Shown here piece after piece: positions 212-47,715 of a DNA stretch of 64,000 nucleotides. The notes beneath the pieces are model-generated. The model was not told the origin of the DNA. It did not search any database and worked only from the letters and a program-made list of their open reading frames with translations. This DNA is from Methanocaldococcus sp. 28A. Its GTDB lineage: Archaea > AGJL01 > Methanococci > Methanococcales > Methanocaldococcaceae. Made by a program: the position numbers and the translations under genes. The stretch is from assembly GCA_049852185.1 (NCBI GenBank), contig CP187540.1. One strand, given 5' to 3'. How positions within the stretch are numbered: position 1 is the stretch's first letter; every line of letters begins with the position of its first letter.

Positions 212-906
212 GAGGTTGTCAAGATAAGGATTAAATAAATATGTGTAAATAAAGGAAGATATGAAACTTACGATAGAAACGTTAAAAGAAAGGATTAAGA
301 AGATAGTTAAGAGGAATAAGAAGTCGATAGAGATTAAAATCTTAGCAGGAATTTTGTATTATCTGGGATTATCGTTAAGAAAGGTTAGTTTGTTTCTTTC
401 ACAGTTTGAGAGCATAAGCCATGAATCGGTTAGAATATATTACCACAAGATTAAAGATATTTTAAACGAGCCTGAAAGAAAGACAAGAAACCTAATTGCA
501 ATCGATGAAACTAAACTAAAGCTTGGAAATGAAACTATTTATGTATGGTCTGCTATCGATGTGGAGTCTAAAGAATGTTTGGGTATCTATGTCTCTAAAA
601 CAAGATTTTATCTCGATACTATGTTATTCGTAAGAAGGATATTAAAATTTTGCTCGAATAAACCAAAAATTTTGGTTGATAGTGGTAAATGGTATCCGTG
701 GGCTCTACAGAGATTAGGCTTAAAATTCGAAAGAGTTCGATTCGGTTTAAGAAATTGTGTCGAAAGTTTCTTCTCTCTACTCAAACGAAGAACCAAATCT
801 TTCTATAACCGATTCCCTAATAACTCTAAATTCTCATCTGTCATTAGTTGGCTTGAATCTTTCTCCTCTTTCTATAACTTCTTCCTTTACTTATCTTGAC
901 ATCGTC
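212..906 (+). mobile_element. IS6-family insertion sequence, apparently intact
   Basis: TIRs GAGGTTGTCAAGATAAG / CTTATCTTGACATCGTC; flanking direct repeat TAATTTAGG (203-211, 907-915); encloses the transposase. Confidence 0.92.
261..899 (+). CDS. IS6-family DDE transposase
   Basis: [21 protein letters not shown] and RNCVESFF motifs typical of IS6/IS240 transposases. Confidence 0.93.
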
Positions 907-1356: not shown

Positions 1357-1577
1357 CCGTTTCCTATTACCATATCGTATTATAGTATAAATAACATATA
1401 ATAACTTACGGCTATGAAAATGTGTTGTCCTCAACCCATAGCTTCATCAAGATTACAAATCTCTCTGCTGTGGGTTCATTGGACTTCGAGCTGAACGGAT
1501 ACATCCCACAAACATTATATTATTAAATTATGTTAGCCTCGAAGGCAATGCCCTCTCATCAGCCAATAAATTAATTA
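1357..1577 (-). ncRNA. Structured-RNA mini-element copy 1 (omega-RNA/HgcC-like), truncated by the ISH3-like IS
   Basis: About 150 bp nearly identical to 30780-30940; K-turn hairpin at 1533-1566; terminus GGAAACGG at 1357. Confidence 0.7.
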
Positions 1578-2773
1578 CAGTATCTACGAATATGCACTAT
1601 GTATGCACAACCAGATATTACACATAACCACATTTAAATAATCGAATTTATTTAATAACTTACATATTTCGACGATGAAGAATTTTAAAGAAATACATTC
1701 TTTTTTATTACGAATTTTAATCCAAAAGTTATGAATAACGCATTTAAGCATAAAAAGGAACAACCTAACTTTTAAAGAGGTTGATTTCGTTTTTATAACT
1801 GCATCTTTAAGCATTTTAAATCGTGTTTCAATATTCCATCGTTTTTTATACATTTTTATGTAAGATTCTTGATTTTCAAAGTTGATATTAGTTAAAAAGG
1901 TATAATATACCTTTTTTCTTTCGTTGTTTGTAATTATTTCGTCCTCAGCAATAACTAATTTAGGAATAGTATTTTTATCGATAACATAATCGAATTTCCA
2001 TTTTTCTTCTTTTTTATATTCCTCCTTAAGATAGTATTTAACTTTATCATTTTTCGGAATAAAGCTTATGTAATTACATCCGTATTTTTCAAAAATTTTT
2101 ATTATTTCAAAATTTTTAAACTCTCTATCGGTAAGTACTACAATATTACATGGATTTATTTCTAAATCGTTAATAGTAAAGTCCATAAATTCCTTCACAT
2201 GATTAAGCAACGAATATTCCTTAAAAAGAATATCACAATAGATTATTAACGAAAAATCTTCTGTATGTAAAGTAGCACTATATATTTATACGAACCAGTA
2301 CTGCCCCTCTCTTTTATATATTCGTGAATTAATTCTAAATCTAAATTATTACCATAATAGGCATCATAATGCGTATCTATCGATAGGCAAAAATTTCTAT
2401 TATTTTTTTTAAATCATTGAATATATTTTTAACAAAAGATTTATAAATTTCTTTAAACATAGAATTACCTGCCTTATTTATATATCGATAGTAAGAGTCT
2501 GCCGATGGATAATTTAGCCTTGCTAATGGTCTCTAAATATGTATTATATTATTCGACATCGCCTCTATAAATCCTCTTGTATAATCTTCAACTCGATAAA
2601 TCCTTGGACAAATTTGAAGAACATTGTTTATGAATTCGTTAAATTCATTAAATGATTTTATAGCTAACAATCTTATGTCGTTCATTGTTCTACATCCTCC
2701 TATTTTTTTAATAACTATTCGATATTATGAAATATTAACTTTTCTGTTTATTTTATGATGTTCGGAGATACTG
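1578..2773 (-). mobile_element. ISH3/IS4-like insertion sequence with a frameshifted transposase
   Basis: TIRs CAGTATCTACGAA / TTCGGAGATACTG, TA on both flanks; related copies at 25767 and 49347. Confidence 0.88.
1584..2685 (-). pseudogene. IS4/ISH3-type DDE transposase pseudogene
   Basis: ATG 2685 with GGAGGA RBS, 5' half broken; C-terminal ORF 1584-2210 has LTDREF and YKKRWNIETRFKMLK (YREK-type motif). Confidence 0.85.
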
Positions 2774-26760: not shown

Positions 26761-26910
26761 ATTAAAATCAGACCGATTCGGTATGGAAGCCTTCAATTGC
26801 ATGAATACCTACTCCAGCATTAAAATCAGACCGGTGCGATATGGAAATTATCAGTTTTTGGCGGGTTATCACATACGGAAAAATTAAAATCATAAATCTT
26901 GGATTAAATA
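26761..26910 (+). CRISPR. Orphan mini-CRISPR: 2 repeats plus 1 degenerate repeat, 2 spacers
   Basis: ATTAAAATCAGACCGATTCGGTATGGAAGC (26761), ATTAAAATCAGACCGGTGCGATATGGAAAT (26819), ATTAAAATCATA... (26883); spacers 28 and 34 nt; resembles the Methanocaldococcus repeat ATTAAAATCAGACCGTTTCGGAATGGAAA. Confidence 0.82.
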
Positions 26911-29705: not shown

Positions 29706-30014
29706 TTATTTAGCAAGTGTAAATCTTACATCATCATCTCCAACATCAAAAATTCCTAATCTAACACCGGCATCAATCCAGCCATAGGCATAATTTAATG
29801 AAGCAAATGCAGTTACATAATCTCCTCTCTCTTTAAATGCTTTAGCATCTTCAAAATAACTCTCTATCATCAATAAAAAATCTTTAGCTACCTCATACAA
29901 TAAACTCCTTTTTGGAGGCAAACCTTTTTTAATGATTTTTATAGCTTCATCAGTTCTTTTAAAGTAATTTTCTAATTTTTCTTCAGTAATTTCTTTAATC
30001 ACTTTTCTCACCAT
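29706..30014 (-). CDS. DUF357 protein
   Basis: YFEDAKAF...[20 protein letters not shown] signature; start codon uncertain. Confidence 0.85.
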
Positions 30015-30027
30015 TATATATCTGACA

Positions 30028-30658
30028 GTGTGAATTAACGAAAAGAATCTTAAAAGCAAAAAACAGAAATAGGATGAGGTTAAATAGTTTATTAAAAAAA
30101 GGTGATACCTATATGTTAGCAGCATTTAATGATATACTGGTTGATTCTATAAATAGTTTAGGGATATGTTCTTCGGAAGAGATAGCGAAGTATGGGGTGA
30201 CGAGGACATTAATGCCGATAAAGACGATTAAAGGGATGTCATATTTAGAGATTGATAGGACAACTGCTATTAAAAATCTACAAGAACTGTCAGAATAGGA
30301 TTAGACTAATCGGACTTAGAGTTTTCTTGTGGAGAGAGATATTATTATGATGATGGAAAGTACGATGACAAGAATACATTAAATAAAATAGTTAAATTCA
30401 CTAAAAGCTAATAATAAAGAAAACGAAAAGAAGTAGTAAGAGCTATGGTGCTAAAATTAGGGATAAAATCTTCGATAAATATAATATAAGAAAGAGGAAT
30501 ATGTGAAGGTTTCTTCGGAGCTTTAACCAACAGATTTAGAAATAAATTGAATACTTTCTTAACTTCGCTTCTATTACTCGAATCGCTATTTGGGTTTGCA
30601 TATATTCTTTAATCATATTGCTGAGGTATCGTATGTAAGTCCTATCTTAGACACACAC
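30028..30658 (+). mobile_element. Decayed DDE (IS5/IS4-like) IS remnant
   Basis: RBS+ATG at 30113; broken frames containing DGKYD and RGICEGFFGAL; end CTATCTTAGACACAC. Confidence 0.6.
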
Positions 30659-30724
30659 TTTTGGATGGAGTTTTATAAAAACAAAAGTATAGATTTGTTT
30701 TGTATGTTCTATTTAAGGAAATTA

Positions 30725-30993
30725 CCGTTTCCCACTTCCATAGCTTATAACAACTTAATTTATACAAACTGATAGCTATGGAAATGTGTCGTCCTTAACC
30801 CCTTGCTTCATCAAGATTACCAATCTCTCTGCTGTGGGTTCATTGGACTTCGGGCTGAACGGATACAGCCCCACAAACCTTATATTATTAAATTATGTTA
30901 GCCTCGAAGGCAATGCCCTCTCATCAGCCAATAAATTAATATTAATTACCTCTTTATTTATATGTTACGATATGCTACAGAACCTGGAAACTG
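30725..30993 (-). mobile_element. Complete non-coding mini-element carrying an omega-RNA/HgcC-like structured RNA
   Basis: Imperfect inverted ends CCGTTTCC / GGAAACTG; TTA on both flanks; TATA near 30955-30963; K-turn hairpin 30898-30931; GGGCTG/CAGCCC stem. Confidence 0.75.
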
Positions 30994-31064
30994 TTACAAA
31001 CCCAGTAGTATTAATATAGTCTAAAAGAGATGTTAAAAATTAATATTTAGAGATAATATTTTAT

Positions 31065-47593: not shown

Positions 47594-47671
47594 ATTTCCT
47601 AACACTTATTAAAACCTTTTCTATTAAAACTTTAATTTGTCTTATAAGTTAGTTTATTCTCCTACAGTAAT

Positions 47672-47715
47672 CCGTTTCCCATTTCCATAGCATATCGTAA
47701 TATTTAATAATATAC
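47672..47715 (-). mobile_element. Solo end fragment of the 30725-30993 mini-element family
   Basis: CCGTTTCCCATTTCCATAGCATATCGTAA matches the ends at 1357, 30725 and (inverted) 30964-30993. Confidence 0.65.

Follow-up and report, generated by a model that had tools for sequence, protein, structure and literature searches.

A gene-less miniature of a probable IS607-type insertion sequence in Methanocaldococcus, with a predicted TnpB guide RNA bearing two K-turns

The window considered here is a stretch of 64,000 nucleotides (G000:C1:992001-1056000) from a Methanocaldococcus genome of 1.55 Mb and 29.7% G+C (G000, contig C1), and it includes a short repeated unit, hereafter U1, which runs on the minus strand from position 31000 to 30725 (Table 1). 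The left ends of the different copies align from TTTG or TTCG, and the sequence before them is divergent save for a G-rich motif, which sets the left boundary at 31000, where U1 opens with TTTGTAAC... directly preceded by TGGG. A sequence-only reading of the window had placed the unit at 30725-30993: the unit is indeed found there, but 30993 is inside the element, which is 7 nt longer at its left. The TTA seen on both sides in that reading is not a target duplication, the left one falling within the left end, and the imperfect inverted ends are real but longer than first given (24 of 32 positions alike, counted by eye on the alignment of short copies). This left end is kept in short copies of five genomes in the alignment, and TATAAA occupies a constant place within it in 13 of the 17 short copies, mostly 22-34 nt ahead of the hairpin that follows. 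With the usual archaeal spacing between TATA box and start, transcription from this predicted box would begin at about the base of the first K-turn hairpin. None of the 17 short copies shares a conserved ORF with the others (longest frames 42-91 aa, with frames and strands shifting), and the window holds no tnpB, as had been read from it, the nearest hit to the TNB domain being outside (C1:1077650).

Table 1. Features of U1, and of two related copies, in window coordinates.
Feature	Position	Strand	Basis
TAM-like target motif TGGG	31001..31004	-	just 5' of left end; family junctions
Left end (TTTGTAACAGTTTCC...CGTAACA), imperfectly inverted relative to right end	30963..31000	-	82-84% identical to IS_A/IS_B left ends
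TATA-box-like TATAAATA	30955..30962	-	position in short copies
K-turn 1 hairpin: C-stem, GAU bulge, G.A/A.G pairs, 7-bp NC stem	30898..30931	-	consensus fit, homology
AU-rich linker, leftover of second deletion	30872..30897	-	comparison with IS_A and copy G009a
Hairpin GGGCUG/CAGCCC, nearly invariant	30852..30871	-	19-copy alignment
GUC/GAC-closed domain: covarying stem, K-turn 2 motif (30805-30832) and its capped hairpin	30791..30848	-	helices 4-6
Right end: long terminal hairpin (UUUCCAUAGC/GCUAUGGAAG), then single-stranded GGGAAACGG terminus	30725..30784	-	homology, folds
Flank, guide position if transcription reads through	30705..30724	-	different at each copy
U3, K-turn 1 through right end	1357..1575	-	190/220 identical to U1
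Right-end fragment (...ATGGAAATGGGAAACGG)	47671..47701	-	similarity

Other repeats share the window with U1. Two multi-copy repeats lie back to back beside it (30295-30660, ~365 bp, and 30013-30295, ~280 bp), each with at least eight genomic copies at 76-94% identity. Near the start of the window, a 212-aa ORF (261-899, plus strand) matches an IS240/IS6-type DDE domain, and a ~210-bp repeat (700-907) has many copies in G000, G009, G011, G012, G015 and G016, often at the ends of draft contigs. A single match to the CRISPR-DR13 repeat model (26761-26790, 37.8 bits) is just above threshold, with no array recognized by Rfam around it.

Searching the genome with the unit by BLAST returned 12 matches, so that U1 is a repeated unit, as the first reading had anticipated, and a covariance model of the family recovered six full scaffolds and a number of fragments. 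The full scaffolds are those of U1, U2 (C1:89713-89928), U3 (window 1357-1569), a copy at C1:1177713-1177909 and two within tnpB-carrying elements (IS_A and IS_B, below), with scores of 214 bits for U1, 201 bits for U3 and 193 bits for each of the tnpB-linked scaffolds. U1, U2 and U3 are mutually 85-86% alike. The second copy initially read at 1357-1577 is genuine, but it is without left end and TATA box: a DDE-transposase insertion sequence (a ~730-bp repeat with several copies at 90-96% identity) adjoins and truncates it on that side, the neighboring 208-aa ORF (1584-2210, minus strand) matching DDE_Tnp_1. An end fragment proposed at 47672 was likewise recovered, as a right-end fragment at about 47671. 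Beyond the window, there are further-deleted derivatives unable to make the scaffold (C1:1320599-1320740, and right-end-only pieces), and at G000:C1:606280-606342 two facing right-end fragments form a near-perfect palindrome beside a copy of a DDE-type insertion sequence. The two flanks of U2 (G000:C1:89712-89987) are found far apart in relatives (42 kb vs. 203 kb in G011, 445 kb vs. 1028 kb in G016), and this separation by hundreds of kb places U2 at a rearrangement breakpoint.

Across genomes, an exact 23-mer scan of the genome contig collection gave five loci, all assigned to Methanocaldococcus or Methanocaldococcaceae, and the covariance model detected the element family in 11 out of 40 genomes of a phylum sample, with nothing more distant among these 40. 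Short copies with both ends occupy different sites in G000, G001, G005, G009 and G016. At the U1 locus itself, the closest relative (G011) has a neighboring S6e gene that is 96% identical and synteny ends beyond S6e; the covariance model found no copy of the element family in this genome.

Two of the stretches related to U1 are carried by tnpB 3' ends. The first, IS_A (C1:~448733-450237), encodes an uninterrupted TnpB of 440 aa (C1:448855-450177), and the second, IS_B (C1:~735983-737512), is the same element in frameshifted form. U1 aligns to both in three blocks, namely the left end (54/66 positions for IS_A, 36/43 for IS_B), the K-turn hairpin (30/35 and 31/35), and the last ~35 tnpB codons with the right end (130/169 for IS_A, 114/138 and 23/25 for IS_B), which corresponds to identities of 82-84% for the left end, 86-89% for the hairpin and 77-83% for the scaffold. 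The codons retained in U1 match the C-terminus of TnpB, and the hairpin is written, in the parent, into the codons LADE(E/R)ALPSRL between the two CxxC pairs of the TnpB zinc ribbon. U1 is thus a double internal-deletion derivative. As the alignment shows, two deletions took away almost the whole of tnpB: a first brought the K-turn hairpin, inside the zinc-ribbon coding part, next to the left end and its TATA box, and a second, between two TTTGAT repeats, removed the stretch between the hairpin and the omega-RNA scaffold. At the linker, the parent has about 70 nt of coding sequence (CFDCGFYADRD...), with 64 nt in IS_A vs. 16 nt in U1, and one copy, G009a, still holds the segment of the second deletion with TTTGAT flanking it on both sides. 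The proposal that U1 specifies an omega-RNA-like RNA is supported by homology, since the unit corresponds to a tnpB 3' end plus right end in two insertion sequences.

A possible protein partner is encoded elsewhere in the same genome. The TNB domain search gave eight hits in G000, a genome with three TnpB families of ~24-30% mutual identity, and one uninterrupted gene, that of IS_A, is cognate to U1. Its product matches the TNB domain, the RuvC glutamate and second aspartate of ISDra2 TnpB line up with its IIEDL and ADRD motifs, and the first RuvC aspartate is placed in ALDFN by eye only; judged by sequence, this TnpB is compatible with the U1 scaffold. Two of the four refuting conditions set out with the first reading, a lack of similarity to tnpB-associated RNAs and a genome devoid of TnpB, are contradicted by these results. 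The IS_A protein is ~24% identical to the TnpB of the other IS607-type family in this genome. In a separate tnpB, beside a Y1 tnpA, two TNB hits with equal scores lie 317 bp apart at the 3' end (G000:C1:829441-829958), which suggests a tandem partial duplication. Copies of the U1 family persist without the nuclease: G016 has 16 covariance-model matches and a cognate tnpB broken by stops, and G007, G008 and G009 have copies but no cognate tnpB at E ≤ 1e-40 (G007 and G008 being 86-89% complete assemblies). Finally, a search for resolvase domains found no serine recombinase gene in G000, so that the copies there are probably immobile at present.

To evaluate the RNA, we considered both the fold of U1 and an alignment of 19 short copies from seven genomes (G000, G001, G005, G007, G008, G012 and G016). 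U1 folds at -65.8 kcal/mol (z -4.3). The 34-nt K-turn hairpin, which fits the canonical consensus (C-stem, 3-nt bulge, tandem G.A/A.G and NC stem) as had been read from U1, occurs exactly twice in the window (in U1 and at 1533-1566) against none expected from 100 shuffles, and pairs of K-turn descriptors within 60-220 nt number only seven in the 1.55-Mb contig, of which the U1 family accounts for four. RNAalifold predicts 39 pairs for the 19-copy alignment, with 95.3% of cells paired and 39 double-change cells vs. 15.9 ± 2.9 after shuffling (0/500), a control that overstates the support because the copies are related by common ancestry. When pairing partners were slid, at most 57% of cells remained paired, and this control, together with compensatory pairs in four helices, is better evidence for the fold than the shuffles. 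A second model, which sets K-turn 2 in register and includes the long terminal hairpin, performs equally well (93.4% paired, 43 double-change cells vs. 17.9 ± 3.2 shuffled).

Individual helices follow the same pattern. The C-stem of K-turn 1 covaries (AU:10/GC:7 and CG:13/UA:4), and both GA pairs of this K-turn are present in 16 of the 19 copies, the other three having lost one G.A pair. For the second K-turn (GA..GAUGA), also part of the first reading, both G.A pairs are found in all 19 aligned copies and the first bulge base is variable. The GGGCUG/CAGCCC hairpin has 97.4% of cells paired over its six pairs, three of which are invariant, though the short copies are devoid of an ORF. In the GUC/GAC-closed domain, helices 4-6 include seven pairs with changes on both sides. 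GUCC/GGAC, once suspected of being a pseudoknot, is a nested helix.

The main alternative to a working guide RNA is that U1 is an inert decay product, i.e., the deletion leftover of a dead insertion sequence, with an RNA that has no role and a fold inherited from the omega RNA of its parent. Several of the observations above would fit this view: there are deletion products more extreme than U1 as well as scraps of right end alone, the promoter region of U3 is gone, copies are kept in genomes without an intact cognate tnpB, G000 is without a serine recombinase gene, and U1, U2 and U3 are only 85-86% alike and therefore old. However, the same two-deletion architecture is found at many sites in several species, hence it spread after the deletions occurred. 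The scaffold core is also almost invariant, and its stems keep pairing through double changes though nothing is translated, with the TATA box retained in most short copies. We therefore regard decay as unlikely, and note that persistence without a nuclease, scaffold-less derivatives, the loss of the left end in U3 and the absent recombinase do argue against an obligatory role.

The type of the parent element was assessed from its boundaries and its relatives. Among 18 distinct left junctions, 14 read NGGG (12 AGGG, one TGGG, which is that of U1, and one GGGG), and the others are two AGAG, one TGTG and one AGGA, counts that leave out four rows in which the left-end BLAST query matched right ends in reverse. 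On the right, all but one of 20 distinct ends close with ACGG, hence with GG, and the last GG of the TGGG preceding U1 is probably the core dinucleotide. For U2, the orthologous empty site in G011 and G016 reads ...TGTGAG/AG followed by the U2 right flank (right-hand side only); for U3, whose surroundings are other repeats, no empty-site reading was obtained. Two relatives still include traces of a recombinase. In G012 (contig C34), the left end is separated from a tnpB with 87% identity to that of IS_A by a frameshifted serine-recombinase remnant, which covers aa 65-207 of a 214-aa reference (54% identity over 125 aa, E 1.6e-36), and in G019 (contig C109) the last 62 recombinase residues (aa 146-207) stand just upstream of an intact 442-aa tnpB. 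No intact tnpA of the U1 family was found at any of the 10 cognate-tnpB loci examined, and where full-length resolvase genes were checked among the 17 genomes of the genus, their neighbor is the other tnpB family.

Two studies of IS607 elements describe a strict GG core, a TGGG target or TAM, and measured TAMs of GAGGG and AGGAG (PMC10690162, PMC11061315), to be compared with NGGG in the U1 family. The elements concerned, the C. botulinum IStron (PMC10690162) and ISFba1 with its RAGATH-18-derived RNA (PMC11061315), share with the U1 family the boundary GG, the G-rich TAM, and a tnpB that encodes a zinc ribbon and RuvC motifs and whose 3' end is overlapped by the guide RNA; the U1 family differs in having recombinase remnants in two relatives only and no group I intron. 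Taken together, the recombinase remnants, the boundary GG and the NGGG flank lead us to assign the U1 family, with moderate confidence, to the IS607 type rather than the IS605 type. Literature searches on ISAMJ1, and on IS607 with MITE in archaea, returned nothing useful.

The opposite assignment would make U1 a palindrome-associated IS200/IS605-type element, mobilized in single-stranded form by the Y1 TnpA of C1:830896-831249. There is one Y1 transposase gene in the genome, the right end does form a long hairpin whose 5' arm the left end resembles (by eye), and tnpB-only elements are customarily filed under IS1341/IS605. Yet this Y1 gene stands beside another, unrelated tnpB, and its element has no end similarity to the U1 family (best match of 19 nt, E 0.004), to which the resolvase remnants inside two relatives, the GG at both boundaries and a flank motif that is G-rich rather than a T-rich TAM must be added. 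Such an origin is accordingly very doubtful.

Overall, U1 is probably the miniature of an insertion sequence of IS607 type, with tnpB and a serine-recombinase tnpA; the miniature itself would be non-autonomous and encodes no protein, and this reading includes a probable guide-RNA function. If so, the guides would be taken from the sequence that follows the element end GGAAACGG, and this sequence does vary from site to site as first remarked, with 20 distinct right-end flanks. No second exact genomic match was found for any of 11 guides, nor an exact 20-mer match in viral contigs for the guides of U1 and U3, the two that were scanned. With this coverage, the suggested search for flank targets in the genome and viruses yielded no exact target, but near matches of the U1 guide came up in three paralogous repeat copies, preceded by a GGG motif in two cases and by GTGG in the third. 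Right after the right end of U1, a short repeat GGG-C-N-GTTTCCTTAAATAGAAC... occupies window 30659-30721 (minus strand), and further copies of this GTTTCCTTAAATAGAAC repeat lie at C1:1425506, 1360506, 36125, 162194 and 763360. A search for the 63-nt repeat beside U1 as a possible left end for the second IS607 family gave no hits. U1 appears to have inserted at the GGG heading one copy of the short repeat, and its guide therefore nearly matches the other copies, with 1-3 mismatches in 16 nt. That U1 could be a domesticated guide-RNA gene with a fixed, useful guide, serving host gene control or defense, is scarcely credible, as its promoter-like box, its lack of a protein and the three near-matched sites have to be set against insertion sites that are not conserved (as at S6e in G011), guides that find no second exact genomic match nor, for U1 and U3, an exact viral one, and a cognate TnpB that retains nuclease motifs.

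For the miniature with a working guide RNA, the following sequence of events can be proposed. The left-end promoter would drive an RNA of ~210 nt, initiated near K-turn 1 and continuing past the right end into the flank; L7Ae would bind its two K-turns, and the TnpB of the intact sister element (C1:448855-450177) would bind the scaffold in trans. The resulting complex would cut DNA in which the flank sequence comes after NGGG; an empty site produced by excision of the unit would have this form, so that recombination would restore the copy, as shown for bacterial IS605 and IS607. Our best reading of U1 is therefore that of a gene-less transposon whose omega RNA needs a TnpB from elsewhere and may guard the copy against post-excision loss.

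Such elements are of a known kind, since stand-alone and PATE-borne omega RNAs have already been published: stand-alone omega RNAs are reported to act in trans with compatible effectors (PMC10691335), and PATEs often encode omega RNAs that require TnpB in trans (PMC10055086). U1 resembles these omega RNAs of IS200/IS605/IS607 elements in having both ends and no protein gene, a scaffold beside the right end, a guide position derived from the flank, and a compatible TnpB elsewhere in the genome. It differs from them in being archaeal (Methanocaldococcus group) and IS607-type, in its two K-turns, and in the direct fusion of a former tnpB-side promoter to the RNA. Archaeal non-coding RNAs from tnpB 3' ends and from fused left and right ends are known too, as sotRNAs and as the transcribed, PATE-derived fused-end RNA VNG_R0052 of Halobacterium (PMC4615843). 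The HgcC family (RF00062), which belongs with them, has no match at the loci of the U1 family. The cmscan comparison that had been envisaged with HgcC and sotRNA-type models led to no fitting Rfam family, HgcC included: among 4227 families, a set which may or may not include RAGATH-18, nothing relevant was found in the window (gathering threshold), at eight loci (E ≤ 10) or at five tnpB loci (E ≤ 1), and across the whole genome the HgcC model gave a single sub-threshold hit, elsewhere (24.8 bits vs. a cut-off of 50).

The only unusual trait of U1 is its two K-turn motifs. They share the 3-nt bulge, the tandem G.A/A.G pairs and a UGAUGA-like strand with the K-turn RNAs bound by L7Ae (box C/D and H/ACA sRNAs, RNase P RNA), and differ from these in that neither a C/D nor an H/ACA architecture is present and Rfam gives no hit, the binding of L7Ae being deduced from the motif. 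L7Ae-family genes are present in G000, and the two conserved K-turns suggest L7Ae as a partner. In protein alignments, the core residues of K-turn 1 correspond to a 6-9 aa insertion in the zinc-ribbon loop relative to ISDra2 TnpB and Fanzor2. In the second IS607-type TnpB family, the 3' regions at G000:C1:1519270 and C1:632388 (minus strand) include a K-turn built as AGA-hairpin-GAUGA, which resembles K-turn 2 of U1. In the main texts found by searching for TnpB with K-turn or L7Ae, we came across no description of K-turns in archaeal omega RNAs, and the main text of an L7Ae RIP-seq study (PMC5539422) mentions neither transposase nor TnpB.

It is tempting to speculate that the guide RNAs of archaeal IS607-type TnpBs are three-part particles, in which two K-turns recruit L7Ae as a structural subunit, a possibility that we put forward tentatively and hold to be somewhat improbable. 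Under this hypothesis, the K-turn 1 stretch would be a protein signal and an RNA signal at once, because it is written into a lineage-specific TnpB insertion, and the retention of these modules alone in miniatures would reflect their dependence on TnpB as well as on L7Ae.

Beyond this locus, U1 adds another gene-less transposon that would live off a nuclease encoded elsewhere. Recognizing such units is useful for annotation, in which they would else pass for novel small RNAs or spurious ORFs, and the copies may help explain rearrangement points in Methanocaldococcus genomes, as for U2 at its synteny break. The deletions themselves amount to a natural experiment on the parts of the RNA, in which promoter, K-turn 1, GC hairpin, K-turn 2 domain and terminal hairpin survive, and from these surviving parts a minimal scaffold can be hypothesized for a hyperthermophilic TnpB whose TAM is G-rich. 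Should L7Ae prove to be in the particle, the guide RNAs of transposons would be linked to the archaeal world of K-turn ribonucleoproteins, which would also be relevant to reconstituting archaeal TnpBs as editing tools.
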